A stretch of 63,975 nt of DNA, counting the filler, from Jimgerdemannia flammicorona (taxonomy: Eukaryota): the NCBI GenBank assembly GCA_003990765.1. It is 3 parts of 3 records of this genome, joined end to end, with 100 filler letters (N's around TTAATTAATTAA, not from the genome) between each part and the next. Parts side by side here need not be neighbours in the genome. Positions count along the whole stretch, not along the records: positions 1 to 21,260 come from RBNJ01001493.1; 2 more parts are not named here. One strand, written 5' to 3'. A model generated the notes under the pieces. The model saw nothing but the letters and a program-made list of their open reading frames with translations. It had not been told where the DNA came from and searched no databases. This document shows, piece after piece, positions 12,901 through 63,975 of the stretch (positions are counted from its first letter, which is position 1; every line of letters starts with the position of its first letter). The position numbers were made by a program, and so were the translations under genes.

Positions 12901-13638
12901 TTATAATTCTGAGAGACAAAGCACAGTACTACAGCATCTTGGATCTATATTTTGTATTCCACCAAATTGGACTCACAGAAATAGCAAGTGAAAATCAGCC
13001 TTTATCACCTCAGATGGAACCTATATCTACTTGTGAATATCATTCAGAATGTACAATACCCCTGTAAGCTTCTAGTGAATGATGAACAAAATCTTCTACT
13101 ATGATATGGAAAAATGAATGATGGTTTATAAGAATGATGTTATCATCTATAGCAGGACAGCTGAAGAATATCTGCAGCATATTCAATAGATGATAGAGAA
13201 GCTGAGACAGTATGGTCTTTATATCAAGCCCAAGAAGTATAATTTTGTAGAAATTGAGATCATCTATCTCAGCTATATTATTAATCAAGAAGGAATACAT
13301 ACAGACCCTCTCAAGATATAAGTAGTAGCAGTATACCCAAGGCCTACTACTGTTACTGAAGCCCAAGCCTTCATGGGGCTGGCCTCATACATATTACCAA
13401 TGATTTATCAGAGGATTCTCCAATATTGCAGGCCCAATCTATGAACTCAACAAGAAGGATACTAAGTTCCAATAGACTGGCAGGCAATAAAAAGCATTCA
13501 ATGAGCTCAAGGTTAGACTGACCCAGGCACCCATCCTCAGAAGACCTGATTGAACTTAAGAATTTATCCTGCAGACAGATATAAGTACTCAGAGACTAGG
13601 AGCAATTCTAGCTCAAAAGAAAGATAAAGTAGAGTATG
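9990..13638 (+). mobile_element. Ty3/Gypsy family E: LTR end/PBS, gag, PR, dUTPase, RT, start of RNase H; truncated by LTR A
   Basis: TATTACA-ACT-TGGTAC at 9991-10006. CYTCGEEGHYSYEC zinc knuckle ~10891. Protease C-half ~11500-11680. RT motifs SPWSS.VV..K, RLCIDYRKLN. FILQTD at ~13562. Confidence 0.85.
12040..12435 (+). pseudogene. dUTPase domain (family E), between PR and RT
   Basis: TGLEMIIP, SSLA, GEVINFNYIGEI and ETERERKKFGS are decayed trimeric dUTPase motifs. Confidence 0.75.
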
Positions 13639-15699
13639 TATAAGAGGGTTACTTTTTAGGGTAGCCATTACATAGTTCTAGAAGGGTTTTCTGGAGGTTC
13701 CGGATATTCTGGAAGACTGTTTTCTTATGGTCAAGATCAATTTCGTATGGAGTACATCCTCTATGATTATTGATTTTAAGATTGGGTTGACATCTCAACC
13801 AAAGTCCTTTTTTTGGACTAGTTCTGGATGTTCAGGATTTTCTGTATTTCAGGAAGTTCAAGAAACTAAGACCAGCTTAGTTGAATCAGCGTATTGCTGC
13901 AGACAATACCCAATTAGGAAATTTCATGATGGGGTTAGGAGTGGGACCTAATGGGGAGTGGCTTTACTTAAGAGTGGTTTGTGGGTTATTAAATAGGTTT
14001 ATTCGCTATTCATGATATGCTATACTAAGAGTAGTTGTGTGAAGGGATATTGTGGGGAAGTGTTTAGGAATATTCTTATATGTTCGAGTCAGAGATTCTG
14101 AGGTCTGGGGGAGGGGGTATTTATACTAGTGAGGGGCTATCTGGACTATACTAGATATGGATGTAGTACTAAGTACTTTGTTGAGTCGGAATGCAGTCAT
14201 GTAGTACAAGTATGATCTGACATGTCAAGAGATCGTCTGACTGCTGAGTCAGTTCACAGTCATGTCATATAAGGCTAATCTAACTATACTATGACTGCTA
14301 GGCTATTTATGAGTTTAGGTGCTGTCTGGGTAGTTCTCGATGACATCACTATCAATTGCATTATCTCTAATAAAGTAGTCATCTAGGAAGAGTGGTTCGC
14401 AGATTACTTCTCCTTGTTCACTGAGGTAATAATACATTAGAACTTCATCACCATCCCACAGGATAGCATTGTCTGTCTCATATGCTGGATATGGTATTGG
14501 TGGGCGAAGGAGGGGTGCATCATCTTCACTTTCATCAGATTTGCTATCTGCATACCTTCTGTAGGTAACAGCACTATAAGTCATGGGGTTGTAGTAAGCT
14601 GGTGGCTGTGGTTCATGTCGCTCATACTCAGGTGGTGGAGTGGTTGGTTCAATCTCGAGAGTTGTCTGAAGGTACAGGTTATGTTCTCTGGTCTCTTCAT
14701 TGTAGTTGAAGTAATCGGGGGTGAATGCTGGTTGGTATTCATGCTAGTGGTCATTGTCCCAATAAGTCTCATATGCTGTTATGAATTGTTGTAAGTTCAT
14801 CAGCAAGGTTGGTGGTGTGATCAGGGTTGGCAGAGATCCTTGGCTAGAGGTCATATCAGTATCAGAGGGATCATTATCTTCTGCTTCATCTTCATCGAAG
14901 TGGATTATATCGTTGATGTCCTTCATAGTATATCCAACTTGGGGCATTTGCAGGATATGATCATTGGGATGTGTGAAGGTTCTGTCTGTGGTTTCGACAT
15001 ACTCGAGGTACTTGTGGTTGAGTTCTTGTATCATATCATCGATTTGGCCATAGGACAGGGTAGCAACCATTTCAGCTGTAGTAACTCAGAGGCAGGGAAT
15101 AACAGTGCTATACTCATAGAAGAGTTCTCAATGTTTGCAGGCAATGAGCTTCTGATGTTGAGACATCTGGATAATATCTGTATTGTGGTAGTGTTTGATT
15201 ATGTCTTCCAGGAGGCAGCTGATCTGGTAGTAGCTTGAGATTTGTCTGATTCAGTGGACCTCGCTAAGCATGTTCAGAGCATTCCATCAGGCTTCCATGA
15301 AGTAGAGGGGTGCTAGGCTATGGATATTCATAAGGGCAGAGGGGGTGTGGCTCAGTTGACAATGGCATTCCAAATGTCGGTGCAGATATGGGTGTAGATC
15401 TCAGTGGTCATGTTTGTGTGTCTGGAAGTTGTGGTTGTTATTTGTTTTGGTTCTCTGATTTGATGCATCTCAGTGCTCGGTATATATGCATTTGGTCCTG
15501 ATTGGTAAGATTCTGTTTATGTAAATCTTGTATTCTGTGACTTCATATTGACTCAGCTTTGTGTACTGTGACTTCAGTTTGACTCAGCTTCATGATCAAG
15601 CAGGTGATTTCTAGATTTGTTCAGAGGTCATGTGTGATTTCAGTGGCTTGTTCAGAGGGTGACATGTAATTTCATTGGCTTGGAGGTTGTGCACTTACA
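13639..15699 (-). repeat. LTR family A, copy 1 (2061 bp, 3' LTR)
   Basis: T(A/G)TAAG...CTTACA termini. PPT (actctccccttctt) abuts at 15700. Core TATA ~14117-14125. Four copies in the window. Confidence 0.9.
14315..15411 (-). pseudogene. LTR-A embedded accessory ORF (consensus 365 aa)
   Basis: Track fragments MTT.IYTHI, MVATLSYGQ and MTYSAVTY join into one frame when copies 1-3 are compared. Stops are CGA>TGA or TGG>TAG type. One 1-bp deletion in this copy. Confidence 0.8.
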
Positions 15700-17420
15700 A
15701 CTCTCCCCTTCTTAGCTTTCGATGTCCTCATCAGGGCCTTCTAATTTTGTTCAGTGATACAGGGAGAATAGGCTTGCTTTCAGTTTCACCCTTTTTCCAG
15801 AGAGTCAGTATTCTTATCTTGTTTTGCTGAGTTCTTGGTTTGGTTTGCAATAATTATAATGTTTGGGAGAATAATATATAGTATGTATGGATAGGTGCAG
15901 AATATTTGGTTCTAGTTGTTCAAGGAATCATATTCCTGAACTAGGTCAGTAGCATTCTGGAGATTGGTCTTGGGTTCTCAGATTGCATCATGGATTAGGT
16001 AACCTTTCCATTTGACAAGGTACTCAGGATGGTTCTTGTTGCCATGTTTGTTGAGGATTTGTTCAACTTCATATTCTTCTTGATCATTAATAATGATAGG
16101 TGCAGGTGTTTTGGTGGTCCAGTTTGGAAATAGCTCATCATCATTCTCATTGTATCACTTGAGACGTTGGACATTAAAGACTGGGTGAATCTTAATAGTG
16201 TCTGGTAGCGTCAGTTTGTAGGAGGTAGGAGAGACTTGTGTGATGACTTCAAATGGTCCAAAGAACTTACTGTTCAGCTTTGTAGATGGTCTGTGCTTGA
16301 GGTTGTCAACTCAGTATCCTCTGATGTCCAGTAAAACTTTTTCTCCAATATCAAAGGTTTCTTCTTAGCAGTGTTGGTTAATATACTGTGACTGTTTTTC
16401 TTGAGCTCATGATAAATTCTCGATTGCAATCTGGCTTAGATTACGCATTCGGAGTAGGAATTCTTCAACAGCTTCAACTGTAGAGAGTTCTTCAGTGGTA
16501 TGGATAAGTGTTAAAGGGGTGTTTGGGTTTTGTCCAGTGTTGGCGAAGAATGGGGTCATTCCAAGAGAGGCTTGCTTGCTGTTGTTGTATGCAAACTCAA
16601 CTGCAGTGAGGTGTTCATACCAGTTATCTTGTCTGTAGGAAAAATAGTTCCTTAGCATTTGTTCCAGAGTTCGGTTCATTCTTTCAGTTTAGTCATCAGT
16701 TTCTGGGTGAAAAGCTGTAGATAGTGCAAATTTTGTTCCAAGGTATATATGGAGGGCTTTCCAAAATGGCTGGTGAATTTCGGGTCTCAGTCACTAATGA
16801 TGATCTTTAGAAGACCATGGTAGTGGAAGATGTTGTCAAACAAGAGTGTGGCTATGTCTGGTGCTGTTGCAGTAGTAGTAGTAGGCACAAAGTGGACTTG
16901 TTTACTGAGATAGTCCACAAAGATGACAATTGCATCTTTTCCATTCTTGGTTCAGGGTAATTGTACAATGAAGTCCATAGAGATTTGTTCCCAATTAGCA
17001 GATGGTACTGGGATAGGGTGAAGTAAGCCAGGATTTGCTAGTGTTGAGGACTTATTTCATTGGCAGACATCACAGAAAGTGATGTAGGTTTTGAGCTAAT
17101 CTGCCATATGGGGCCAATAGAAGTTTCGGGAGATAACTTCATAACATTTATCAAATCCTAAATGTCCAGCTGTAGGGGTATCATAACATTCAAATAGGAT
17201 AGTCCTTCGGAGGTCTCAGTTGTTTGGGACATATAGTCTGTCTTTGTAGTAGATAGTATTGTTCTTCAGCTGGTATTGATGATACCGTGTATGCTTGTCA
17301 GCATCATCACTATTCAGGATTTCTTGCAGTGCTTGAGCTTCCTTATCATCGGCACATGCTGTGATAATTTGTTCCATGATAGAGTTTGTGACCAAGGTGA
17401 GAGTTTGGATAACCTCTTCA
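15700..17420 (-). mobile_element. Family A integrase + chromodomain fragment
   Basis: [28 protein letters not shown] and EYEVEQIL..YLVKWKGY motifs. Confidence 0.9.
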
Positions 17421-19481
17421 TATAAGAGGGTTACTTTTTAGGGTAGCCATTATGTAGTTCTAGAAGGGTTTTCTGGAGGTTTCGGATATTCTGAAAGACC
17501 GTTTTCATATGGTCAAGATCAATTTCATATGGAGTACATTCTCTATGCTTATTAATTTCAAGATCGGGTTGATGTTTCAACCAAAGTCCTTTTTTTGCAC
17601 TAGTTCTGGATGTTCAGGATTTTCCATATTTCAGGAAGTTCAAGAAACTAAGACCAGCTTAGTTGAATCAGTGTATTGCTGCAGACAATACCCAATTAGG
17701 AAATTTCATGATGGGGTTAGGAGTGGGACCTAATGGAGAGTGGCTTTACTTAAGAGTGATTTGTAAGTTATTAAATAGGTTTATTTACTATTCATGATAT
17801 ACTATACTAGGAGTAGTTGTGTAAGGGGATATTGTGGGGAAGTATTCAGGAATATTCTTGTGTGATTGAGTCTGAGATTCTGAGGTCTGGGGGAGGGGGT
17901 ATTTATACTAGTGAGGGGCTATCTGGACTATGCTAAATATGGATGTAGCACTAAGTGCTTTGTTGAGTCGGAATGCAGTCATGTAGTACAAGTATGATCT
18001 GATATGTCAAGAGATCATGTGACTACTGAGTCAGTTCACAGTCATGTCATACAAGGCTAATCTAACTATACTATGACTACTAGGCTATTTATGGGTTTAG
18101 ATACTGTCTGAGTAGTCCTTGATGACATCACTATCAATTGCATCATCTCTGATAAAGTAGTTATCTAGGAAGAGTGGTTCGCAGATTACTTCTCCTTGTT
18201 CACTGAGGTAATAATATATTGGAACTTCATCACCATCCTACAGGATAGTATCATCTGTCTCATATGCTGGATATGGTGTTAGTGGGTAAAGGAGGGATAC
18301 ATCATCTTCACTTTCATCAGATTCGCTGTCTGCATACCTTCTATAGGTTACAGCACTATGAGTCATGGGGTTGTAGTAAGCTGGTGGCTGTGGTTCATAT
18401 CACTCATACTCAGGTGGTAGAGTGGTTGGTTCAATCTCAAGGGTTGTCTGAAGGTACAGGTTATGTTTTCCAGTCTCTTCATTGTATTGAAGTAATTGGG
18501 GGTGAATGCTGGTTGATATTCATGCCAGTGGTCATTGTCCCAATAAGTCTCATATGCTGTTATGAATTGTTGTAAGTTCATTGGCAAGGTTGGCAGTATG
18601 ATCAGGGTTCACAGAGATCCTTGGCTAGAGGTCATATTGGCATCAGAGGGATCATTATCTTCTGCTTCATCTTCATCGAAGTGGATTATATTGTAGATGT
18701 CCTTCATGGCATATCCAACTTGGGGCATTTGCAGGATATGATCATTGGGGTGTGGGAAGGTTCTGTCTGTGGTTTCAACATACTCGAGGTACTTGTGGTT
18801 GAGTTCTTGTATCATGTTGTCGATTTGGCCATAGGACAGGGTAGCAACCATTTCGGCTGTGGTAACTTGGAGGTGGGGAATAACAGTGCTATACTCATAG
18901 AAGAGTTCTCAATGTTTGCAGGCAATAAGCTTCTGATTTTGAGACATCTGGGTAATGTCTGTATCATGGTGGTGTTTGATTATGTCTTTCAGGAGGTGGC
19001 TGATCTGGTTGTAGCTTGAGATTTGTCTAATTCAGTGGACCTTGCTAAGTATGTTCAGAGCATTCCATTGGGCTTCCACAAAGTAGAGGGGTGCTAGGCT
19101 ATGGATATTCATGAGGGGCAGAGGGGGTGTGGCTTGGTTGACAATGGCATTCCAAATGTCAGCACGGATATGGGTGTAGATCTTGGTGGTCATGTTTGTG
19201 TGTCTAGAAGTTGTAGTTATTGTTTGTTTTGGTTCTCTGATTTGACGCATCCCAGTGCTCGGTATATATGCATTTGGTCCTGATTGGTAAGATTCTGTTT
19301 GTATAAATCTTGTGTTCTGTGACTTCCTATTGACTCAGCTTTGTGTGCTGTAACTTCAGTTTGACTCAGCTTCATGATTGAGCAGGTGATTTCCAGATTT
19401 GTTCAGAGCTTGCGTGTGATTTCAGTGGCTTGTTCAGAGGGTGACTTGTAATTTTGGTGGCTTGGAGTTTGTGCATTTACA
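17421..19481 (-). repeat. LTR family A, copy 2 (2061 bp), with embedded ORF at 18097-19193
   Basis: Colinear with copy 1, with the same termini and PPT. Confidence 0.9.
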
Positions 19482-21240
19482 ACTCTCTCCTTCTTAGCTT
19501 TTGATATTCTCATCAGGGCCTTCTAATTTGTTCAGTGATACAGAGAGAATAGGCTTGCTTTCAGTTTTGCCCTTTTTCCAGAGGGTCAGTATTCTTGTCT
19601 TGTTTTACTGAGTTCTTGGTTTGATTTGCAATAATTATAATATTCAGAAGGATAATATATAGTATGTATGGATAGGTGTGGAATATTTGATTCTAGTTGT
19701 TTAAGGAATTATATTCCTGAACTAGGTTGGTAGCATTCTGGAGATTGGTCTTGGGTTCCCAGGTTGCATTGTGGATCAGGTAACCTTTCCATTTGACAAG
19801 GTACTCAGGATGGTTCTTGTTGCCATGTTTGTTGAGTATTTGTTCAACTTCATATTCTCCTTAGTCATTAATAATGACAGGTGAAGGTGGTTTGGTGGTC
19901 CAGTTTGGAAATAGCTCATCATCATTCTCATTGTATCGCTTGAGACGTTGGACATTAAAGACTGGGTGAATCTTAATGATATCTGGTAGTGTCAGTTTGT
20001 AGGAGGTAGAAGAGACTTGTGCGATGACTTCAAATGGTCTAATGAACTTGCTGTTCAGCTTTATAGATGGTCTGTGCTTGAGGTTGTCAACTCAGTATCC
20101 TCTGATGTCCAGTAGAACTTTTTCTCCAATATCAAAGGTTTCTTCTCAGTAGTATTGGTTAACATACTGTGACTGTTGCTCTTGAGCTCGTGATAAATTC
20201 TCGATTGCAATCTGGCTTAGATTGTGCATTCGGAGTAGGAATTCTTCAACAGCTTCAACTGTGGAGGGTTCTTCAGTAGTACAGATAAGTGTTAAAGGGG
20301 TGTTTGGGTTTTATCCAGTGTTGGCGAAGAATGGGGTCATTCCAAGAGAGGCTTGCTTGCTGTTGTTATAAGCAAACTCAACTGCAGTGAGGTGTTCATG
20401 CCAGTCATCTTGTCTGTAGGAAACATAGTTCCTTAGCATTTGTTCCAGAGTTCAGTTCATTCTTTCAGTTTGGCCATCAGTTTCCAGGTGAAAGGCTGTG
20501 GATAGTACAAGTTTTGTTCCATGGTGTATATGGAGGACTTTCCAAAAATGGCTGGTGAATTTCACATCTCAGTCACTAATGATGATCTTGGGAAGACCAT
20601 GGTAGTGGAAGATATTGTCAAACAAGAGTGTGGCTATGTCTGGTGCTGTTGCAGTAGTGGTAGTAGGCACAAAGTGGGCTTGTTTGCTGAGATAGTCCAC
20701 AAAGATGACAATTGCATCTTTCCTGTTCTTGGTTTGGAGTAATTGTACAATGAAGTCCATAGAGATTTGTTCCCAATTAGCAGATGGTACTGGGATAGGG
20801 TGAAGTAAGCTGGGTTTTGCTAGTGTTGAGGACTTGTTTCGTTGGCAGGCATCACAGGAAGTGATATAGGTTTTGAGCTGATCTGCCATGTAGGGCCAAT
20901 AGAAGTTTCGGGAGATAACTTCATAACATTTATCAAATCCTAAATGTCCAGCTGTAGGAGCATCATGACATTCAAATAGGATAGTCCTTTGGCCATCTTG
21001 GTTGTTTGGGACATACAGTCTGTCTTGTAGTAGATAGCATTTTCCTTCAGTTGGTTTTGATGATACTATGTATGCTTGTCAGCATCATCACTATTCAGGA
21101 TTTCTTGCAGTGCTTGAGCTTCCTTATCATTGGCACATGCTATGATAATTTGTTCCATGATGGAGTTTGTAACCAAGGTGAGAGTTTGGATAATCTCTTC
21201 GATTGGTGGTTTGGAGATTGCATTGGCAATAATATTTTCC
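19482..21240 (-). mobile_element. Family A integrase + chromodomain fragment, copy 2
   Basis: Colinear with 15700-17420. CDACQRNK zinc-binding motif. Ends at a poly-T tract. Confidence 0.9.
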
Positions 21241-21913: not shown

Positions 21914-24178
21914 GTCACTTGGACTCTGCTATTTATTACCAGTCTATTAATAAGTTTACAGTATATCCTCCAAATACCCAATCCCCATAAGGGGGCCACT
22001 CCCCACATCCTCACGAACAAAGACTACTCTCTCACCCATGACTCCCACCCTCCCTCTACTCTGCCTACAGATTTTCTCCACCAAATGACACCTTCAATCA
22101 TCCTACAACCCCCAACCAAGCCACCAGCCTGTCAAGGTGTCTTCTATAAGGCTACACCACTGCAGCAGCCTGACCTCTAAGTCAAGTCTCCTCCTATCCT
22201 CAAAAACAAATAACCAGTGACTGGTCAGCTCTATTCAAATGGCCAAAGCCCAGCCTAATGTAAGCCATTCCTTCCCCACCCCCCTACCAATCTATCCCTC
22301 AAATCCTCCCACTGCCTCTGCATGCCAGCTCCCCTACAAACTACCTCCAAATGATCCCTGATGGTCTGCCAAAAGGTACTAAGTACCTCACACTCTCCTA
22401 GCCAATGTTCAGGCATCTGTATATATCTCCCTTATTGCTCTACATTATAACACTCTCTATAGTCAAAGCAACCTCTCTTGATAACGTGACCTAAGTGGAA
22501 GTTGAGCATGATATTTTGCCTCAGTATACACCACCAGGCCACCCAGTACTTTGGTAGCATCCACCTCCTCACCTCAGCACTCCAGGCCCAAATGCTATAC
22601 TAGTCCCACTCCTTGCCAATTCCTACTCCTTGCCAACTGCTAGGCCACAGATCCTGGCCTGGTTCCTATTAACATTCAATCCAATCACTAATATCAAACT
22701 CAATTAGGGAAATGCTGCCCAACAACACTCAGTCCCATCTCCACATTGCTGGGTCCCAAGCCACCTTCTCTTTATTTCCCTGCTATCTAATTCCAATGCA
22801 GTGCACCCCCTACCAGAAGCCTTTGTATCACAATTGTTCAGTATTCTGAAGGCCAATAAATGCTAGGAGATTACCAGTCAAACCTCTAGGTGAGGATCTC
22901 ATCTCTCAGACTTTCTGCAATAGGGGGACCCAACCTCCCCCTCTCAACTCTACTGCTCTCTTCAGCCACCATGCTCTCAAGCAGTGCAGCCTCTTAGAAA
23001 AGTCAACCAGCCCAAGTTCACTCCTTGCCACCAGTAAGGATAAGACTTTCCAGCTAATCTGACTCTGTCTTTCAGCCCAGATCCACCCCTTGGCCAGCTT
23101 CATCAATCACTTCACCACCCAAGCTGAGAAGTCCAGATGATAAGCCAGATACTACAACTTTGGCAGCCAATAGATATTCAGAATAGAAACATGCCCTGTC
23201 AGAGATAATTGGCGACCCCCCCAACTCTACAGGGCATCCTTCCAGATTCCAACCTACTGTTCTCACCAAAGTCTGGATAAAACTGACCCATATATCAACA
23301 GATAAATACCCAAGTACTGTACCAGCAGGGATGATGGTTCCAATAATCTCCCCTCCCACCAGACTATTGCCTAACACCATTGTTTTACACTTATGCCAAT
23401 TAAGCTTGACCCCTGAGTTCTCCTCATACTACTCCACTGTTTCCTTGAGCTTTTCAACATCTGCAATTGATCCTAGGCCAACCACCATGTCATCTGCAAA
23501 GGCTTCTACTTTCCACCCAATGCCAATGATAGAGAGCTCCACTATCTTCCACCTGATTCTGTCTACGAAGGGCTCCAGAGAAAGTGCATATAAAATGGGG
23601 GACAGTGGGTCCCCCTGGGGCACCCCCCTACCCAGAGGAAACACTACCCCTCTGTGTCCATTACATATAAGCACAGCCCTACTTCCTTTTAGTAATCTGA
23701 CCATGGCTGACCTGAACTTGTGTGGGACCCCAATCCTATCTAATACTTTTGCCAGCCAGACCCACTGCACCCAGTCATAAGCCTTCTCCTGGTCCAGAAA
23801 AACCAGTCACCCATCCAGTCCACTGGCTCATGCCCCTTCAATAACTCCATGAATCTAGGCAGTACCATCCCTAATGAGCCAGCCTCCCACAAAGCCCCTC
23901 TGCTCAACACCCAAGACTTGCTGGGCCACCTTTTGTATCCTTGCAATCACCATCTTGGTAACCAACTTTCTATCCATATCCAGCAATATAATCAGCCTCC
24001 AGTTCTTCCAGTCCTCTCACCTTCCTTTGTTCTTGTAAAGCAATATCACCAGCCCCAGATCCTGTTCTCCCACCCATTTCCCTGTCTGAAGAATCCAATT
24101 ACACAGAGCCATCATCTCATCCAGTACTCCTGGAACTCCCACCATCTGCTTCCAGAAGTCCTAGGGCAGACCATCCTC
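21853..24178 (-). mobile_element. 5'-truncated L1/Tx1-like LINE (RT, C-terminal Zn finger, poly(A))
   Basis: RGVPQGDPLSP and AFADD motifs. Poly-T at 21853-21910. Confidence 0.9.
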
Positions 24179-33024: not shown

Positions 33025-35849
33025 TAGTATCTCAGTCAGATACAATAGTACTAGGCATGCCATGTAGCCTGAATACTTGATTGAGGAAAATCTCAGCAAT
33101 CTCTGGTGCTGTAGTGGTGTTCTTGGTGGGTGCAAAATGGGCTTATTTACTTAGGCGGTCCACAAATACCACAATGGCATCCTATTCTGCCTTGGTCTTG
33201 GGGAGTTGGACAATGAAGTCCATTGCAATCTGGTTCCAGTTGTGACTTGGGATAGGTAAGGGTTGCAGGAGTCTGGCTGGTAGCTTATTACCACTTTTAA
33301 ACCTTTGGCATATCTCACATGAGGTCATAAAGTCTTTGATGTCCTTGGTCATCTTTGGCCAGTAGAACTCTCTTGAGAGGAGGTTGTAGGTTTTTTCAAA
33401 ACCATAATGTCCTACTGCAAGAGTATCATGGAGTTCCTGTAAGATCTTGAGCCGCAGAGTATCATTGTTATACAACCACTCTGTTATAGTCCCTATAGAT
33501 AAGTCCATCATGATAGGTGAATCTCTTGGCCATTTGTCTTATGGGTTCTGGAACCTCAGCCTCTGGATCTTGGCAGAATTGAAGGAAGTTCATCAGGGGG
33601 CTGTCCTGCTGGTAGCCATCCTTGATCATTTGGGTAAGGTCTCCAATTACTTCAACCATAAAGACAAGTTCATCTTCCATGTACCTGGAGAAACCATCAG
33701 TCACACAGTTGGTTTTGCCTGAGATATACTTGATTTCTATATCAAAGTTGGCAATGATTTCTATCCAGCGGGCTTGTCTGTGGGTCAGCATGGGCTGTGT
33801 GTGAATATACTGCAATGCATAGTGATCAGTGTAGGCTACAAATGGCTGTCCTCGGAGGAAATGGCACCATTCCTGAAGTGCAGTAATAATAGCCAGGAGT
33901 TCCTTCTCATGGATGGTATACTGGATCTTAGCTGGCTTGAGTTTTTGGGAAAGATAGGTCACTGGGCAGTCTTCTTGGCTGAGCACTACCCCAATGGCAA
34001 TATCAGAGGCATCCATGGTCAGAGTGAATGGTCTGGTAGAGTCAGGTGCAATTAGTACTGGGGCCTCAGTAAGGAGTCTTTTGAGATGGTCCATAGCCAG
34101 GGTGCATTCGGGGGTCCATTCAGCTTTGATGTTTACTCCTTTGTGGGCCAGACTGATCAATGGAGCTGTAATAGCAGAGTATCCTTGGATAAACCTCTGG
34201 TAATAATCAGCAATACCCAGAAAGTGCTGGAGTAGCTTGAGGATAGTAGGGATAGAGATATCCTTAAGGTCTGATACCTTTCAGAGGTCTACATTGATAC
34301 CTTCAGTAGAGATGATGTGTCTTAAGTACTCGATCTAGTCTTGATAGAACTTATACTTGCCAATCTTGGCATAGAGCTGGTGTTCTCACAGGAGGGTCAG
34401 TACTTGTCTGAGGTGGGTGTAATATAGCTCTACTGTCTCACTGTAGATTAGTATATCATCAATATATATAAGAACACAGATATTGAGGAGTGGTTTAAAG
34501 ATGTCATTCATCAGATGCTGTAATGTTGCTGGTGTATTGGTCAATCCAAAAGGTATGACTCAGAACTAGTAGTGTCCAAACCATGTTTGGAAAGCTGTCT
34601 TCTCAATGTCCTTCTCATCAATGAGAATCTGGTGGTAACCATTTTGCAAATCTAGTAGAGAAAAGGTCTTGGCCTTGAAGATTTGGTATAGCAACTCATC
34701 AATCCTAGGTAAGGCATACCAGTTCTTGATGGTGATCTTATTGAGGGCTCTATAGTCAATACACATTCACAGAGAGCCATCCTTCTTCTTGACAAATAGA
34801 ATGGGGGCTCCAAATAGAGAGTGGCTGGGTTCAATGTATCCTTGGGCCAGTAGTTTAGTCAATTCATCCTTGAGGGTCTTGAGCTCAGGTTGGATCAGTT
34901 GGTAGATACTCTTGTATGGGGGTTCAGATCCTGGAATAAGATCAATTCCATGTTGGATTTAGCACTTGGGTGGAAGTCCTTGGGGGTCTTGGAATACATC
35001 TCAGAATTCTTCGAACAGTTCTTGAGCTTCTGTTGAAATTTGGCTACTTGTAGCTTCAGTGACTTCTTGTACTATACAGATGAAGTAGGTGTTTCCCTTT
35101 TTTCAAGAGAGTCTCTTCATTTGAATGGTAGAGATGATTTCGATTCCTTGGTGGTTGGTACCTTCCTGTGGTGTCAGGGTGATCTTTCTGCCTTCATGGG
35201 TCAGGTTAACCTCATTGGTTCTCCAGTTGATGTCTGGGTTGTACTGGGTCAACCAGGCTTTTCCTAAGATAATATCTTATTCTGGGAGGTCTATAATGCT
35301 GAAGTCTAACTTCTCTTGATATTTGCCAATCTTAAGCAAAAGATCTTTGCAGATCTTGGTCAATGGTGCAGTTTTACTATCACCAAAGGTAATACTTCTT
35401 TTCTCAGTGGCTGGTCTGCTTTGGGCTCCAATCCTCTTGGCAGTCTTAGTGCTGATGTAGTTTCCAGTAGCACAACTATCAAGCAGGACATTGACATTTT
35501 GTCTGTGGACTTGTTCTGTGAACTTGATGCAACTATCCTCCTTTTTGATGGTATTGAGCTCTTCATCTTCATTGTTGTCCCAATTGCTGTCAGTCTCCTC
35601 GAAGTCAGTTTCTCCACATCCTTCACAAGGAGGGTTGTCTTGTTTGGGTTCCTCAGTCTGTTGAGCTTGGTGTTTCTCAGATTGAATTTTGAAAACTTTG
35701 GAGAGGCATGCATGGCATTCACCAACATGTTCCATGCAGTACATTCAAATAGAATGAGGGCATTATCCACATGGTGCATAACTATCTGCAATTCTCTTAT
35801 ACCAGTTTTTGTCATCTTCCTTCATGGTAGTGATCTTTTGACTGGGAGG

Positions 35850-36270
35850 TTTTTTGGTAGATCCAAACCCTTTCTTGCCATGGTCTGTCTGGGAGAGTTT
35901 GGGGACTTCTTCAATGGTGAGATCTTGACAGATTTCTTTGATGATTGCTTTGACAATCCTTTGGCCTATTTTGACTTCAAATGATGTGTCTCCAAAATTT
36001 CGTAAGATGACATGGATTTCACCAGTAAATCCTTGGTCAACTACTCCTCCTCCTAGTCTAATGTTGAACTCTTTGGATAGGCTACTTTGCTCAGCAAGGC
36101 AGATGTATGTATCTTTGGGAGCTTGCATTGCAATTCCTGTTCACACTATAGCATTGGTGCTTGGTGGAATAGTGAGGTCTTAGCTACTGTAGAGATCATA
36201 TCCAGCATTAGTTGGGTGAGTCTTAGTGGGGATGGTAGCCTTGTATTATATCTTCTGTACTTTGATGACA
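35850..36270 (-). pseudogene. dUTPase domain (family B), between gag and PR
   Basis: AGYDLYS, SSLS, GGVVDQGFTGEI, HGKKGFGST. Confidence 0.9.
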
Positions 36271-49100: not shown

Positions 49101-51953
49101 TATTATCTGACAATAGTAGTAACTAGTATAAATATAAAAATATTGAGAGTATAGTGTAATGTACCTGGCTCAATGGAGGCAAATTACAAGGTTGGGGGTT
49201 ATTGTAGTTTAGCTTGAGCCCTCAGTTACTTTGTTAAAAAGTAATAAAATATTCTAAGATTTCTGAGATCCTTGATGTTTAGTGGTATAATAGTCAAAGC
49301 TAGATATCTGTGAGCAATTTCCTTATTGGGATAGTTCTCTGGGTATAGTGGTGATTTGTGTGTAAATGGACTTCCTTCTTAGATCAACTGGGAATTAGTA
49401 GAAATTTGTATATAGTATAATGGTCTTTCTTATACATGATGGTCTGGCAATTTGGTGGTTTTTCTTCTTGAGTGGCAGGTGATCTCTGTATGACAATCTC
49501 TATATAACATAATGATTTTCAAAAGTATGCAATTTCTGACAGGACAATCTTGGCAGGCTTTCTGATTTGGTGTGGATTCTCCTAAATCAGCAGGGTTCTT
49601 GTATGTTACTGGGAATTGTGCTGGTGGCAGATTCTTCTATATTGGGCTTACTGGGAACAAATGAATAACTCAGATGTTGTAGATTCTTCCTAACCAGCAG
49701 CTCTCTGGGAAATAACTCAGATAGTACAGATTCTTCTGAATCAGGCTCTTTTGGAAATAATAACTCAGGTGTCATAGATTCTTTCTGAATTGGTGGGGTT
49801 CTCAGGGAATGTAGATAACTCAGAAATAGTAGCTTTAACTGAGAAACATACTAGTGTGTAAGAGGGTTGCTTGTTAGGGTAACTGTTACATAGTTCTGGA
49901 AGGGTTTTCTGGAAGTTCTGGATATTCTGGAAGACTGTTTTCTTAAGATCAAGATCAATTTCATATGGAGTATGTCCTCTATGCTTATTAATTTTAAGAT
50001 CAGATTGACATCTCAACCAAAGTCTCTTTTTCAGACTAGTTCTGGATATTCAGAATTTTCTATATTTTAGGAAGTTCAAGAAACTAAGACTAGCTTAGTT
50101 GAATTGGCATATTGCTGCAGATAATACCCAATTAGGAAATTTCGTGATAGGGTTAGGAGTGGGACCTAACAGGGAGTGGATTTACTTAAGAGTGGTTTGT
50201 GGGTTATTAAATAGGTTTATTCGCTATTTATGATATTACTATGCTAAGAGTATTTGTATGAAGGGATATTGTAGGGAAGTGTTCAGGAGTGTTCTTGTGT
50301 GTTTGAGTCTGAGATTCTGAGATCTGGAGGAGGGGATATTTATACTAGTGAGGGACTATCTGGGCTATGCTGAATATGGATGTAACACTTAGTGCCTTGC
50401 TGAGTCAGAATGCAGTCACATAGTACAAGTGTGATCTGATATATCAAGAGATCATCTGACTGCTGAGTCAGTTCACAGTTACATTGTACAAGGCTAATCT
50501 AACTATACTATGACTTGCTAAGCTATTTATAGATTTAGACACTGTCTGGGTAGTCTTCAATGACATCACCATCAATGACATTATCTCTGATAAAGTAGTC
50601 ATCTAGGAAGAGTGGTTCGCAGATTAATTCTCCTTGTTCACTGAGATAGTAATACATTGGGACTTCATTACTATCCCACAGGATTGCATCATCTGTCTCA
50701 TATACTAGGTATGGAGTTGATGGGCAAAAGAGTGGTATATCATCTTCACTTTCATCAGATTTGCTGTCTGCATATCTTCTATAGGTTATAGCACTATGAG
50801 TCATGGGGTTGTAGTAAGCTGGCGACTGTGGTTCATGTTGCTCATACTTGGGTGGCAGAGTTGTTGGTTCAATCTCAAGGGTTGTCTGAAGGTACAGGTC
50901 ATATTCTCCTGTCTCTTCATTATAGTTGAAGTAATCAGGGGTAAATGCAGGTTGGTATTCATGCCAGTGGTCATTGTCTCAATAGGTCTCATAGGTGGTT
51001 ATGAACTGTTGCAAGTTCATTGGCAAGGTTGGCAGGGTGATCAGGGTTGACAGGGATCCTTGGCTTGAGATTATGTCAGCATCAGAGGGATCATTGTCTT
51101 CTACTTTGTCTTTATCAAATTAGATTATATCATAGACATCCTTCATGGCATATTCAACTTGAGGCATTTGTAGAATATGGTCATCAGGGTGCAGGAAGGT
51201 TCTGTCTGTGGTCTGAACATATTTGAGATACTTGTAGTTGAGTTCTTGTATCATATCATCGATTTGGCCATAGGATAGAGTAGCGACCATTTCAGCAGTA
51301 GTAACTCAGAGGCAGGGAATAAAGGTGCTATATTCATAGAAGAGTTCTCAATGTTTGCAGGTGATGAGTTTCTGGTATTGGGACATCTGGGTAATATCCA
51401 TGTCATGGTAGTATTCAACCATGTCTTCTAGGAGGTAGCTGATCTGATAGTAGCTTGAGATTTGTCCAATTCAGTGGACTTCACTAAGCATGTTTAGAGC
51501 ATTCCATTGGGCTTCCACAAAGTAGAGGGGTGCTAGGCTATAGATATTTATAAGGAGTAGAGGGGGTGTAGCTTGGTTGACAATGGCATTCCAAATATCA
51601 GCACAGATGTAGTTGTAGATCTCAGTGATCATGTTTGTATATATTCAGAAGTTGTAGTTATTGTTTGTTTTAGTTCTCTGTTTTGGCATGTCTTGGTGCT
51701 CAGTATATATACATTTGGTCCTGATTGGTTAGATTCTGTTTGTGTAAATTTTGTATTCTGTGACTTCGTGTTGACTCAGCTTTGTGTGCTGTGACTTCAG
51801 TTTGACTTAGCTTCATGATTGTGCAGGTGATTTCCAGATTTGTTTAGAGGTTGCATGTGATTTTGGTGGCTTGTTTAGAGGGTGACATGTGATTTCAGTA
51901 GCTTAGAGGTTGTGCACTTACAACTCTCCCCTTCTTAGCTTTCAACATCCTCA

Positions 51954-52289: not shown

Positions 52290-52949
52290 GATAATTATAA
52301 TATTCAGGAGGGTAATATATAGTATATACTGATAGGTGTGGAGTATTCAGTTTTAGTTGTTCAAGGAATTATATTTCTGAACTAAGTCAGTAGTATTCTG
52401 GAGGTTGGTCTTAGGTTCCTAGGTTGCATTGTGGATTAGATAATCTTTCCATTTGACAAGGTACTCAGGGTGGTTCTTGTGGCCATGTTTGTTGAGGATT
52501 TGTTCAACTTCATATTCTTCTTGGTCATTGATAATGACAGGTGCAGGTAGTTCTGTGGTTTGGTTTGGAAATAGCTCATTGTCATTTTCATTATATTACT
52601 TGAGACATTGGACATTAAAGACTGAGTGAATCCTAATAGTGTTTGGTAGCACCAATTTGTAGAAAGTGGGAGAGACTTGTGCAATGACTTTGAATGGTCC
52701 AATAAACTTACTATTTAGCTTTGTAGATGGTCTGTGCTTGAGGTTGTCAACTTGGTATCCTTGGATGTCTAGTAGAACTTCTTCTCCAATATCAAAATTC
52801 TCTTCTCAGTAGTGTTGGTTGACATACTGTGACTGATGTTCTTGAGCTTGTGACAAATTCTTGATTACAATCTGGCTTAGATTATGCATTCAGAGCAGGA
52901 ATTCTTCAATAGCTTCAACTGTGGAGAATTCATCAGTAGTTTGGATAAG

Positions 52950-58900: not shown

Positions 58901-58970
58901 AAAGTACTGGAAGATTGTAGAATATTGAGAAAAGACAAAGAAAAGAAATAAACTACACTAAAATGTTACA
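52950..58970 (-). mobile_element. Full-length Ty3/Gypsy chromovirus-like family C (6.0 kb)
   Basis: LTRs 52950-53353 and 58568-58970. 5-bp TSD ATAAG (52945-52949, 58971-58975). PBS TGGTAGCAGCAG, PPT. gag PMDLD, dUTPase, LIDSGA, YIDD, TTDVS, INT, chromodomain. Confidence 0.95.
57060..57470 (-). pseudogene. dUTPase domain (family C), between gag and PR
   Basis: [36 protein letters not shown]. Confidence 0.9.
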
Positions 58971-59869
58971 ATAAGTGTCAGAGGGGTGTTTGGGTTTTGT
59001 TCAGTATTGATGAAGAATGGGGTCATTCCAAGAGAGGCTTGCTTGCTGTTGTTGTAGGCAAACTCAACTGCAGTGAGGTGTTCATACTAATCATCTTGTC
59101 TGTAGGAAACATAGTTCCTTAGCATTTGTTCCAGAGTTTGGTTCATTCTTTCAATTTGGCCATCAGTTTCAGGGTGAAATGCTGTGGATAGTGCAAGTTT
59201 TGTTCCAAGGTATGCATGGAGGGCTTTCCAAAAATAGCTAGTGAATTTCAGATCTCAGTCACTGGAGCTGAGTGGGTCCTTTTCACCTTGCAGTTTGAAG
59301 TTATGGTATCCTTTCTTGATGGTCAGAGAATGGTTTACCCAGTCAATCATGGGGTTCTCTTGTTTTAACCATGGAGTCCCAAGGATGATTTCATTATCAG
59401 GGAGTAGTACAATCTGGAGGGTAATATGTACTTGGTAGTCATCAATTCGGAAGGGCAGGTTGCAGACTTCCTTGCTAATGATATGGGAAGTTCCATCAGC
59501 TGTGGTAACTGCTTGAGTTTATTGTACTGGAGAGGTGAAGACCTTGAGTCTGTTGGCTGTTTCTTCATTGATGAAATTGCCTGAGGCACTACTGTCTATC
59601 ATAATCTTGACAGATGCTCAGTTGACAAAAGCTTGAAGTGTAAGTAGTTTGTCTGATCTAATGGTGGTAATTTCAGTTATAGGAGCTTTTCTTCTATTGG
59701 TTCTTCTTTGAGCCAGTTCATTGATACAAGAGAAGCAATCATCAATCATTCAAGAAGAGTACATTCCAATGCCATAGGGGTATCGGCCACTTAGTACATA
59801 TCTATCTTTAATTTTCTTATAGAATTGTTCTTCTTTGTTCATAGTAGGTTGGGCTGGGGTTTTGTTTGA

Positions 59870-60280
59870 TGAGCCAAATCCTTTGGATCCTTGGATAGTG
59901 GGTAGTAGTTCAGGAACTTCCTTGACTGTCAGAGTTGACTCGATTTTCTCAAATAGAATCTGGGTGATACAGAAACCAATAGGGATCTTGAAGGGTGTCC
60001 AACTATGGTTTCAGATGAGGATAATAATTTCACCTATATAATCTTTGTCAATGACTCCTCCTTCTACTGAGAGTCCTTTCAATGCTAGGCTGCTGCAACA
60101 GCATATTCTTCCAACATGTCCTTCAGGGATTTGGATACTGATTCCTGTATAGACTTACTTGACTTTTTGGTTGAAAACTATAGCTTCTTTGGCTGCATAC
60201 AGGTCATATCCAGCTGCCTTTTGACTTCCTTTGGTTGGGGCCTTGGCAGTTTGCCTTAACTTGACAAAGTCCAGTGTTCT
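59870..60280 (-). pseudogene. dUTPase domain (family A), between gag and PR
   Basis: AAGYDLYA, TGISIQIP, SSLA, GGVIDKDYIGEI, GSKGFGSS. Confidence 0.9.
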
Positions 60281-63200
60281 GGTGGTCAGGTTATTGAGGT
60301 GGTGCAGAGTAGTAACAGTTGCTCATGTTACTGTTCGAGGTTTTCAGTTGGGGCAGGTACTGGCCATATGTCCTGTCTTTTGGCAATAGAAGCATGCTCT
60401 GCTTCTTTGAAGTTTATTCCTTTCTCCTTCAGTGAGTTTCTTAAAGGTGCTCAGCTGGGTGGGTTCATGATTTCTGGGTGTCCAAGAGGTGGATGTTGAG
60501 GGAGCTCAGGATGCTTCATACTTGGGTTCTTCTTTCTTGGTCCAAGTCTTTTCTTTGTTGTTGAATTGTCTTCAGGGCAGAATTGGTCCAGCTGTTAGGA
60601 TTTGCTTGACCATAGTCTTGATTCTTGCCAGGCACCATTTTTGGTGATTGCAATCAACTGGGTGGCCTTGTTCACAGATTTTTCTAGTAAGCCATTCAGG
60701 CAGTGCATTGAATAAATGGTCTGCTCTTGTACCATTTCATGCTTCATCATTGGCAATATATCCTAGGCCAATGGTGTTCAGAAGTGACTCAAGTTTTGTA
60801 CAGAAGGTTTTGAATTCTTCTTTACCATGTATATTGAATTTGAGGTTATGGAGTTTGACTCAAGATTCAGCAATCATAGTTTTACTGTATTGTTAAGCAA
60901 TCATAAGTGTTTGAATCCAGGGGCTGTAGGATGGGCTCTATATCCTGGGGCATTGTTTGCTGCATTTTGGGCAATAACTGCAGGTTGGGTATCCCATGTA
61001 AGGGGTTTTTCAGGAAGGGTTCACCACCATTCTTCAGCAGGTCCTCAGAAGAATATAACAACTTGGTGGACATAGGCTGTAGTGGTAGCAAAGAGTTGTT
61101 CCAGAGTGTGGTCTTGATTGTTTGTCAGAAGGTAGTCAGCAACTCACTCATTTGTCTATTGATTGGCTTCAAAGTTAGTATCAACTACACTAATGAAGCT
61201 TTGGACTTCTTATGCAGTACTATTGAAGGTAGGTAGGCTCAGATTTTTAGTTGGTCAGGTCTGTTCAGCTAAGGCAGTAATGGTTGCTGCCATTATGGCT
61301 ACCTGAGCTGTGAGATCTAGAATCTATTGGTTTGCCATGTTGTTTACTAGAGATGATTGGACTGCTGGTAGTGATGTTACTAGTACTACTTGAGGTACTG
61401 GTGCAGAGTGTGAGAGTGTTCTTTGAGTCTGTATAAGTTGCTGGAGTAGTAGTTGTGGGTCTGGAGTAAGGGCTTGATAGATAGCTGTTTGTTGCTGTGT
61501 AGGTGTATTCTATCCTGATGGAGGTGTGTCACCTTCAGTGGTATATCTGGGATTAAATTCACTGAGATACTCCTCCTTTTTTTCGGTTTGGTCTCCATGT
61601 AGTTGGGTTTGCTCAGCATTGAAGTAGACAGAATCAGTTGTATATTGGATTTCAGATAGACTTAATTCAAAGTCAAGTTCAGGTTCAGTATTGGTTTCAG
61701 ATTCAGGTAGAGCTGTAGCTGGGCCTGCTTCTGGTTTGGGGTCAGATTGTTGATGGAGAGTTTCTCTTGCTTCTTCCTTAAGAATATGGTGGACCTTGCT
61801 GTTCTGGAATCAGTAGTATAATGCAGTCTTAGTCCTGGTGTGGTGAAAATTGGTAGAGTTGAGCCACTTGGCTATAGAGGCTTGGGCTTCATGAGGGACT
61901 AAGGCTAGAAAGACTGCTGATGGTTGTCCTAGATTGCTCGGATTTGTGGAGCTGATAAAACTTTTGTTGAGAAGAGTAAAGAAGGCTTCTATAAGACCCT
62001 CTTTGTCTTGACTTGCAGGGTGTAGAGCGAGTTCAGTGAATAGGATTTCGCCTATTTGCTGATTTAATTGAAGTACTTCTTTCTTTAAATGAAGTTTGTC
62101 TCACTTGTTGCAGGTGTGGAGGTCAAATTGTCCTTATACATCAGGTTCAATTCTCTCCAGATTGTCAGATGGTTCAGGATAAATTCCAGTTCAGAGGTTG
62201 GGCTTTATACCAACTTGTAGGAATTCTCAGAGGGGTTTGTAGTGGGGTGAGGAAGTATCTTGAAGTGGAATTGGATTGTAAACTGCTGCTACTAAGTTGT
62301 AAGAGGGTTACTTGTTAGAGTAACTGTTATGTAGTTCTGGAAGGGTTTTCTGGAAGTTCTGGATATTCTGGAAGACTGTTTTCTTAAGGTCAAGATCAAT
62401 TTCATATGGAGTATATCCTCTATACTTATTGATTTCAAGATCAATTTGACATCTCAACCAAAGTCTCTTTTTTGGACTAGTTCTGGATGTTCAGGATTTT
62501 CCATATTTCAGGAAGTTCAAGAAACTAAGACCAGCTTAGTTGAATTAGCATATTGCTGCAGACAATACCCAATTAGAAAATTTCATGACAGGGTTAGGAG
62601 TGGAACTTAATGGGGAGCAGATTTACTTAAGAGTAGTTTGTGGGTTATTAAATAGGTTTATTCACTATTCATGATATTGCTATGCTAGAAGTATTTGTAT
62701 GAAGGGATATTGTGGGGAAGTGTTCAGGAGTGTTCTTGTATATTTGAGTCTGAGATTCTGAGGTCTGGGGGAGGGGGTATTTATACTAGTGAGAGACTAT
62801 CTGAGCTATGCTGAATATAGATATAGCACTTAGTACCTTGCTGAGTCAGAATACAGTCACATAGTATAAGTGTGATCTGATATGTCAAGAGATCGTCTGA
62901 CTGCTGAGTCAGTTCACAGTCATGTTATACAAGGCTAATCTAACTATGCTATAACTTACTAAGCTATTTATAGATTAGACACTGTCTGGGTAGTCTTTGA
63001 TGACATCATCTCTGATGAAGTAGTTGTCTAGAAAGAGTGGTTTGCAGATTAATTCTTCTTGTTTGCTGTGGTAGTAATACATTGGGACTTCATCACTATC
63101 CCACAGGATAGCATCATCTGTCTCATATGCTGAGTATGGAGTTGATAGGTGAAGGAGTGATGTATCATCTTTACTTTCATTTGATTCGCTGTCTGCATAT

Positions 63201-63490
63201 CTTTTATAGGTTATAGCACTATAAGTCATGGGGTTGTAGTAAGCTAGCAGCTGTGATTCATGTTGCTTGTACTCAGGTGGCAGAGTTGTTGGTTCGATCT
63301 TGAGAGTTGTCTAAAGGTACAGGATATGTTCTCCTGTCTCTTTGTTATAGTTGAAGTAATTGAGAGTAAATGTAAGTTAGTATTTATACCAGTAGTCATT
63401 GTCCCAATAGATCTCATAGGTAGTTATGAACTATTACAAGTTCATTGGCAAGGTTGGTGGGATGATCAGGATGGCAGAGATCCTTAGCTC

Positions 63491-63975
63491 ACAGACACCT
63501 TTCACCGGTAATATTCGGGTGACACAAACTTCAGGCAACACTTTCGACAACATTTTCAAGTCTTGGTGTTATTAACATGGCGAGCAACACGCACTCTGGT
63601 GAGCGTACTGGACAGGGGGGCCCCAGTGCCTTTGACTGGCAGCATGTGGGGGGGGGTCGAGGTGCTGGTATTGGTTTGCCGAGTGCTTCATTGAGGGGGC
63701 ACAGGGCCGGGAGTGGCGGCAGAGGAGGTGCAAGGCCACATGGAGAGGGGAGGATGACCTTCGCGGACAAGGTCAGGATGGGAAAGCAGGCGACTGGGCT
63801 GGATGGCTGGCTGGAGCTAGGAAAGGCGACTGCCACCACGAGTGGCAAGGAGGCCTCTCCACTGGAGGGTCAGCGTAGGGGGGCTGGAGGAGTAGGGGCT
63901 GAGGCAGTGACTGCTGATGGCGGTGTGACGGGCAATCTGGAAAAAAATCCAGATGTGACGGCTGATGAGGGACCT
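63491..63975 (+). mobile_element. Young L1/Tx1-like LINE 5' end; ORF1 open from 63577 to the window edge
   Basis: MASNTHSGERTGQGGPSAFDWQ...TFADKVR with no stops and CpGs retained. Interrupts LTR A copy 4. Confidence 0.85.

Follow-up and report, generated by a model that had tools for sequence, protein, structure and literature searches.

A 365-codon reading frame under purifying selection inside the long terminal repeats of a retrotransposon family of Jimgerdemannia flammicorona

In mouse mammary tumor virus (MMTV), a betaretrovirus, the superantigen gene sag lies inside the U3 region of the long terminal repeat (LTR). The nef gene of the human and simian immunodeficiency viruses (HIV/SIV) and the bel/bet genes of foamy viruses are 3' accessory open reading frames (ORFs) that start upstream of the polypurine tract (PPT) and only overlap U3, and foamy viruses pair an internal promoter with the acidic transactivator Tas. 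The extra ORFs of LTR retrotransposons are normally internal. Here we describe an LTR family, named family A below, found in a window of 63,975 nucleotides (the whole stretch of DNA analyzed, filler included, made of three joined parts of the Jimgerdemannia flammicorona assembly GCA_003990765.1). The explanation that we consider the best as a whole, with a probability of about 0.6, is that the family-A LTR holds a complete 365-codon accessory gene that is expressed as its own mRNA and serves the element. A gene lying wholly inside an LTR and evolving under purifying selection has a layout otherwise known from a few retroviruses.

The position of the ORF between the PPT and a box of sequence TATAAATA fits the layout of MMTV sag, the transcription start being presumed from this motif. 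In both cases a complete ORF is located between the PPT, at the start of U3, and the LTR promoter, occurs in both LTRs, and is at the 3' end of the genomic RNA, the promoter and this last position being presumed for family A. Unlike sag, to which it has no sequence relation, the family-A ORF resides in a Ty3/Gypsy element that has a chromodomain and no env, and not in a retrovirus, and its protein is acidic, largely unmodelled and without noted transmembrane-type features. With nef, bel/bet and tas it shares the condition of an accessory ORF at the 3' end reaching U3, and the foamy-virus pairing served as our working model. Unlike nef and bel/bet, the whole ORF together with a candidate promoter is inside the LTR, and no homology was found.

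The backbone of family A, with CCHC gag, dUTPase, protease (PR), reverse transcriptase (RT), integrase (INT) and chromodomain, is shared with dUTPase-bearing fungal chromoviruses (PMC2864245). These comprise PosPlaTy3 of Postia placenta, elements of Phanerochaete chrysosporium and Tmt1 of Tuber melanosporum, and are thus described from basidiomycetes and Tuber; the accessible part of that source makes no mention of an LTR-internal gene for them (PMC2864245). According to the accessible parts of both sources, some fungal chromoviruses carry an "add. ORF" (PMC2864245), and bdelloid rotifer elements, in which dUTPase also occurs, carry ORF3 (PMC5408684). Family A resembles these in having an extra, often orphan ORF besides gag-pol in a Ty3/Gypsy-type element, with dUTPase acquired in the same kinds of elements. 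Unlike the family-A ORF, which is in the LTR, the ORFs of those elements are internal, between pol and the 3' LTR or before gag, as far as these partial sources and general knowledge go. In the literature, of which some sources were accessible in part, we met no LTR retrotransposon reported to have an ORF contained entirely in its LTR; the table of fungal element structures in PMC2864245 might hold a similar case.

LTR copies and the frame inside them

We located LTR copies by BLAST of 13639-15699 against the whole window and obtained four co-linear copies, all on the minus strand, the full LTR being about 2.06 kb long. The first (c1, 13637..15699) is the 3' LTR of a 5'-truncated element, element Y, and runs from TGTAAG to CTTATACA; because it ends with CTTATACA, we set its true end at 13637 although the BLAST interval was 13639-15699. 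The second (c2, 17421..19481) is 92.1% identical to c1, and its 3' end adjoins the integrase zinc-finger region of element Y. The third (c3, 49857..51922; BLAST span 49859-51922) is a 3' LTR with 86.4% identity to c1. The fourth (c4, 62298..63508; BLAST span 62300-63489), with 84.8% identity to c1, has kept only the 3' 1.2 kb, and upstream of about 63508 unrelated GC-rich sequence stands in place of the 5' two-fifths of the LTR. We identified c4 as a 5' LTR because it is followed by a site resembling a primer binding site (PBS), then by a gag zinc knuckle, dUTPase and protease. This PBS-like site, TAGTAGCAGCAG (62283..62294, minus strand), is located 3 nt after the end of c4, with ACT between, and agrees at 9 of 12 positions with an initiator-tRNA PBS; no tRNA genes were found in the window.

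The limits TGTAAG and CTTACA proposed for this LTR in an earlier note on the same DNA were borne out. Both c3 and c4 end with CTTACA, and direct repeats with TG...CA ends are thus seen in family A. TGTAAG or TGTAAA starts directly after AAGAAGG(G/A)GAGAGT in the three copies with a complete 5' end (c1, c2, and c3), and the polypurine tract AAGAAGGGGAGAGT (15700..15713, minus strand), which adjoins the 5' end of c1, recurs at 19482 and 51923, adjoining c2 and c3.

On the element strand of c1, the motifs follow each other in the order given by the earlier note. Near its 5' end, U3 has two 31-bp repeats in tandem (15528..15589), with one TGASTCA site each (15549-15555 and 15580-15586). They are followed by a TATA-like ATATATA (15481..15487), a candidate U3-internal promoter about 70 nt upstream of the ORF, then by the ATG, the internal ATG and the TAA of the ORF, and by a TGAGTCA site (14245..14251). 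Downstream of the latter is the TATAAATA box (14118..14125), the presumed LTR promoter for genomic RNA, which would place the U3/R border about 30 nt further downstream. The only AATAAA poly(A) signal of the LTR (13998..14003) comes about 120 nt after TATAAATA and about 95 nt downstream of the presumed start site, before the LTR end. All these motifs are on the minus strand.

The ORF extends in c1 over 14315..15411 (minus strand), with its ATG at 15411-15409, an internal Met at 15070-15068 (codon 115) and a TAA stop at 14317-14315. This copy has six in-frame stops, TGA at codons 20, 42, 54, 95, and 109 and TAG at codon 223 (14746-14744), and a 1-bp deletion near 15336. In c2 (19193-18100, stop 18099-18097, minus strand) we counted five stops and a 1-bp deletion at codon 237. 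The c3 copy (51632-50538, TAA 50537-50535, minus strand) keeps all 365 codons in one frame without frameshift, with five stops, in agreement with the length previously announced. What c4 retains, on the same strand, is codons ~182-365, interrupted by four stops and shortened by 15 bp in frame, and tblastn of the database relative P0002 (see below) reaches 63508.

In c1, c2, and c3 the ATG is 289 nt downstream of the PPT/LTR start. The ORF is therefore not an internal additional ORF (aORF/ORF3), and the earlier claim that the LTR contains it completely, with the PPT before it and TATAAATA after it, held. That it is LTR sequence and not internal sequence also follows from c4, a 5' LTR, which holds the C-terminal half directly upstream of the TATAAATA region. 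The claim of its presence in both 5' and 3' LTRs was confirmed in part, since the 5' LTR does contain it, but only for codons ~182-365.

The stops are unevenly shared between copies. In the last 251 codons, stop-bearing codons are private to one copy in 10 of 10 cases. In the first 114 codons TGA is found at five codons, two private to c1, one in c1 and c3, and two (54 and 95) in all of c1-c3. Merging these three copies thus does not restore the frame, contrary to what had been proposed; it opens only by CGA>TGA reversal. In the ORF frame, 2 stops common to all copies occur between alignment columns 148 and 1404; the counts for the two alternative sense frames, taken over the whole LTR, are 35 and 44, which speaks against chance.

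Decay, relatives and selection

The copies in the window are dead, and C>T/G>A transitions at CpG and CpA account for their decay. Among the differences private to one of c1-c3, 318 of 357 are transitions, each copy has 7-21 CpG for 73-82 expected (0.1-0.25 of expectation), and the polymorphic sites include 62 CG/TG/CA, 69 CA/TA, and 39 TG/TA. To judge from these patterns, the decay has a signature like that of methylation or of repeat-induced point mutation (RIP).

We recovered two relatives of the ORF product. With the N-terminal 114 residues of c2 as query we retrieved P0006, a partial JGI "hypothetical protein" of 128 amino acids from a 1180-bp contig of another public assembly, with 81% identity to c3. 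Its first residue is the initial Met of the ORF, the five N-terminal stops (codons 20, 42, 54, 95, and 109) all correspond to Arg in it, and it continues unbroken into MVATLSYGQIDDMI, the start of the C-terminal part. P0006 thus supports the CGA>TGA reversal independently. The C-terminal part, searched by word index over 5.8 billion clusters, gave a sole relative, P0002 (ENA, 247 amino acids, on a 998-bp contig), with 63% identity and 80% positives, whose first residue corresponds to the internal Met (codon 115) and whose end coincides with the stop of the ORF.

Less decayed copies were also present among metagenome contigs. The family is abundant in a soil metagenome, where 3363 X1 contigs match c1. 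Aligned on c1, the contigs show CGC at position 15139 in 400.6 of 585 depth (26 contigs of X1), matching Arg92 of P0006, and CGA at position 15088 in 84.1 of 204.3 depth of X1 (5 contigs) and 20.8 of 20.8 of X3 (3 contigs). Because of P0006 and these copies, we read the shared TGAs as decayed Arg codons and the 365-codon gene as real.

Other searches gave no further relative. A profile search of the representative library yielded P0002 and a weak low-complexity match, P0003 (E 9e-5); metagenome contigs gave 188 pattern matches by protein profile, with 0 relatives, and 0 matches by a 24-nt LTR pattern; genome contigs gave 29 pattern matches, with 0 relatives; no relative was found in viral contigs, no shorter relative of the C-terminal part by a search for such, and no usable feature match in the ESM Atlas. 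L001 and L002, obtained with a degenerate pattern, were discarded as chance matches, their agreement being of 18 amino acids only.

The arginine codons of the two parts of the ORF differ. Where P0006 has its 10 N-terminal Arg, the window copies show C, H, Q, Y or stop; this implies CGN codons in ORF codons 1-114, and in codons 115-365 Arg is mostly encoded by AGA/AGG. The N- and C-terminal parts may thus have different origins.

We compared the copies codon by codon with a null model in which the observed base changes were re-dealt over sites with the same base. Between c1 and c3, 59 of 110 differences in the C-terminal part are synonymous for 34.5+-4.6 expected, with 32/16/62 at the three codon positions, and in the N-terminal part 26 of 47 for 15.9+-3.1 expected, with 14/7/26. 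This excess appears in the ORF frame between subfamilies (c1 or c2 against c3). Neither of the two alternative sense frames showed it, and it was also absent from LTR columns 1-288 and 1407-2080. Nor was it seen within subfamilies (c1-c2 and c3-c4), as expected since copies decay after insertion. The third-position bias starts at the first ATG and is absent in the 43 codons before it. Crude Nei-Gojobori ratios of nonsynonymous to synonymous rates (dN/dS) were 0.16 (N-terminal part), 0.14 (C-terminal part), and 0.10 (differences fixed between both pairs); the crude ratio ignores transition bias and becomes ~0.2-0.3 against the spectrum-matched null. This ratio among subfamilies had been set beforehand as a test of the gene, and the crude values of 0.10-0.16 are not near 1. 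We conclude that purifying selection acted on the gene as the subfamilies diverged from each other, and that the frame was intact in the ancestors of the window copies.

A gene restricted to the last 251 codons was rejected, given the synonymous excess of the N-terminal part, the third-position bias from the first ATG, and P0006. An intron removing both shared TGAs was also rejected, the best GT...AG pair found by eye breaking the frame.

Presumed expression and role of the product

The product is, by the searches made, an orphan that matches no Pfam family, PDB entry or fold. The Pfam scan (E<=1) returned a single noise match (RAMP, 0.053), a PDB sequence search no match at E<=1, and Foldseek against PDB a best E of 0.87 with a low-confidence model; none of these searches detected homology to Sag, Nef or Bel by sequence or fold. 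AlphaFold2 predicted helices over residues 2-141, five of them in the model of the N-terminal 128 residues, and the ESM Atlas model of P0002 (predicted local distance difference test, pLDDT, 0.39) had a template modeling score of at most 0.30 to anything. The N-terminal part of P0006 is net neutral, with 10 Arg in 114 residues, and the C-terminal part, as represented by P0002, has a net charge of -36, an isoelectric point of 4.05, and 23 Tyr and 24 Pro in 247 residues. Composition and models thus agree with the earlier picture of a helical N-terminal and an acidic, Pro/Tyr-rich C-terminal part, and the product probably consists of a helical domain of ~140 residues and a very acidic, Tyr/Pro-rich remainder of ~220 residues, poorly modelled and probably disordered. 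PPxY late-domain motifs, seen in window copies, are absent from P0002 and were not retained.

We placed the gene in U3 because TATAAATA and then AATAAA ~120 nt on form the usual promoter-R layout. Genomic RNA would start ~30 nt after TATAAATA, with the gene in U3 and at the 3' end of this RNA. The region between the PPT and the transcription start would then be U3 and be copied to both ends by the standard reverse-transcription scheme, so that each new insertion would receive two gene copies and each solo LTR would keep one; this would also explain why c4, as a 5' LTR, holds the C-terminal half of the ORF. The gene itself would be expressed from its own mRNA of ~1.45 kb, starting after the TATA-like box and ending at the LTR poly(A) site. 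We favor a separate mRNA because the TGASTCA-bearing repeats are directly upstream, no ATG separates the expected start from that at 15411, and the latter has A at -3. There is indeed no ATG between ~15455 and 15411, so that the ATG of the 365-codon frame is the first AUG after the candidate start. The promoter near 15485 inside U3 is a candidate, and a sliding count of subfamily differences revealed no conserved non-coding footprint around either TATA box.

All the material compared with the LTR consists of contigs, and two sets, X12 and X13, are guessed to be RNA. Their contigs of word depth >100 are confined to 13652-14071, downstream of TATAAATA; their bins over the ORF have 0-18.5, from thin contigs such as X13 records 21-24, and DNA runs cover the LTR evenly. 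This pattern is at most a weak hint that transcripts start after TATAAATA and says nothing on expression of the ORF.

Several observations weigh against a complete 365-codon gene with a promoter of its own. The TGAs common to all three window copies (codons 54 and 95) need parallel CGA>TGA decay, for which we estimated a chance of about 0.15 from the counts of CG/TG/CA patterns, a value that puts no strain on their reading as decayed Arg; P0006, which makes this reading the simplest, is a single sequence. P0002, the more distant relative, begins at codon 115, and the N-terminal 114 codons may be absent or separate in its lineage; a 251-residue product from the internal, well-contexted ATG is possible. 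One antisense frame, which shares the third position, also has a synonymous excess (72 for 48.7 expected); it has 17 stops common to all copies, and we rejected it as coding and treated its excess as a by-product. The poor AlphaFold2 models (pLDDT 32.6 for the 365-residue c3 reading with X at stops; 55.7, with a predicted template modeling score of 0.46, for the N-terminal 128 residues) make "helical" and "disordered" soft statements. TGASTCA is not enriched over the window (20 sites for 15.9 expected), and the U3, R, and U5 borders are presumed, being placed by motifs.

In the alternative that survives best, the gene would have no promoter of its own and would be translated only from a subgenomic or spliced derivative of genomic RNA, as its 3'-most ORF, the copies in 5' LTRs and solo LTRs being silent passengers. 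We consider it possible but on the unlikely side. The ORF does lie at the 3' end of any transcript running from TATAAATA in the 5' LTR to the 3' LTR, an arrangement as in retroviral 3' accessory genes, and the TATA-like box at 15487-15481 is a plain motif match. However, this box, the 31-bp repeats and the first-AUG geometry are all found directly upstream of the ORF, and c3 lacks the candidate splice acceptor, CCAG/CTAG immediately in front of the ATG.

It is improbable that the upstream TATA-like box is itself the genomic promoter, with the ORF in an unusually long R of ~1.5 kb, as the first ORF of the genomic RNA. Such an arrangement would account for the enhancer-like repeats at the 5' end of the LTR beside the first TATA-like box, and the sole AATAAA, at 14003-13998, would serve both this R and the U3 layout. 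The succession of TATAAATA and AATAAA speaks against it as the usual R layout. Moreover, genomic RNA would end early if it met a strong poly(A) signal in the 5' LTR, 1.5 kb after its cap.

It is very improbable that the ORF is a captured host gene, or a fragment of such a gene, that simply rides in the LTR and has no role for the element. P0002, on its 998-bp contig and without N-terminal part, could be a cellular homologue, but purifying selection acted inside the LTR during subfamily divergence, and the two relatives are the only ones found among ~15 billion proteins, both short-contig fragments and neither in a named gene family. Finally, that there is no gene, the long frame being a chance product of the A/C-rich strand composition, hardly deserves credit: the codon-aligned antisense frame is nearly open, with 3 shared stops in 366 codons, and composition can therefore keep frames open in the LTR, but the synonymous excess is in the sense frame and not in this one (P=0.85 and 0.42, for which antisense coding was rejected here too), two independent database ORFs with 63% and 81% identity share its start or stop, and every stop is private or Arg in P0006. 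The near-open antisense frame (14441-15235 and 18249-19016, plus strand) is probably a mirror effect of sense codon usage.

Returning to the accessory gene with its own mRNA, its product would be a trans-acting regulator or adaptor serving the element, of transactivator type. A transcription activator or adaptor would fit the helical domain and its long tail of acidic and aromatic residues by resemblance only, and the transactivator-type role is a guess that we hold to be doubtful. Further still, each LTR, solo ones included, might be a self-contained cassette with enhancer repeats, TATA box, 365-codon gene and shared poly(A) signal, whose acidic product would act in trans on the LTRs of the family, either activating them or countering a host defense by cytosine methylation and C>T mutation; this proposal is speculative and rather unlikely. 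If it were true, every LTR remaining in the genome would add to gene dosage and so to element activity. This would amount to positive feedback, a strategy that is not described among LTR retrotransposons.

The placement of the gene would have consequences of its own. It would be doubled at each insertion, survive LTR-LTR recombination in solo LTRs, and could be expressed from hundreds of sites without gag-pol. Family A would thus offer a non-retroviral parallel to MMTV sag and foamy-virus Tas, and, in a host with heavy mutation of repeated sequences, a concrete case in which to ask whether regulators or anti-silencing factors are carried by retrotransposons. As the protein has no relatives outside element family A, any function found would be new.

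The carrier element and its surroundings

Pfam matches indicate that the window is a nest of decayed LTR retrotransposons, and they were used to define the element domains. The internal region behind c4 (59258..60505) contains a gag zinc knuckle (zf-CCHC, 60347-60505), a dUTPase (59753-60322) and a protease (RVP_2, 59258-59518), and the 3' internal region upstream of c1 (15981..17215) an integrase H2C2 domain (17099-17215), a Tf2-type SH3 domain (SH3_Tf2-1, 16158-16310) and a chromodomain (15981-16154), all on the minus strand. From the position of this chromodomain, pol ends ~270 nt before the PPT. Chromodomains (Pfam Chromo) are also present upstream of c2 (19696-19860, E 7.5e-17) and c3 (52422-52595), and all three come after SH3_Tf2-1 on the element strand; integrase H2C2 was found upstream of c1 and c2, and SH3 with chromodomain upstream of c1, c2, and c3. 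In the c2 element, RVT_1 (23432-24016) is upstream of Integrase_H2C2 (20572-21078) on the element strand. Pfam detected no RNase H in family A itself. By these domain matches, family A is a dUTPase-bearing chromovirus (Ty3/Gypsy) with the order gag-CCHC, dUTPase, PR, RT, INT, SH3, chromodomain. An RT/RNase H ORF, looked up in the ESM Atlas, gave a mixture of Streptophyta, Arthropoda, Basidiomycota and Oomycota. No family-A element in the window has both outer LTR ends, and there is no solo LTR in the window.

The segment 13639-17419 matches 17421-21200 at 92.3% over 3.78 kb, and c2 adjoins the integrase zinc-finger region at 17420. The c1/c2 arrangement is best explained if one member of the family inserted into a second, the inserted copy having its 5' LTR outside the window. 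In the element delimited by c4 and c3, the protease match runs nearly straight into integrase-core sequence (58971-59263 matches 16504-16795), and a deletion appears to have removed RT, RNase H and the integrase N-terminus. Two 407-bp direct repeats (52947-53353 and 58565-58970, 91.9% identical) surround PR, RT and RNase H matches at 55022-57134; this unit is another Gypsy element, of smaller size, that sits within the integrase region of the c4-c3 element. The GC-rich sequence next to c4 (63509-63975) may be an insertion or a rearrangement, and contains a 151-residue open frame (63523-63975, plus strand) without Pfam match that is cut by the window end. dUTPase domains are located upstream of the protease in two Gypsy elements of the window, family A (59753-60322) and another one (35280-36140), the latter with longer intact ORFs at 33-38 kb.

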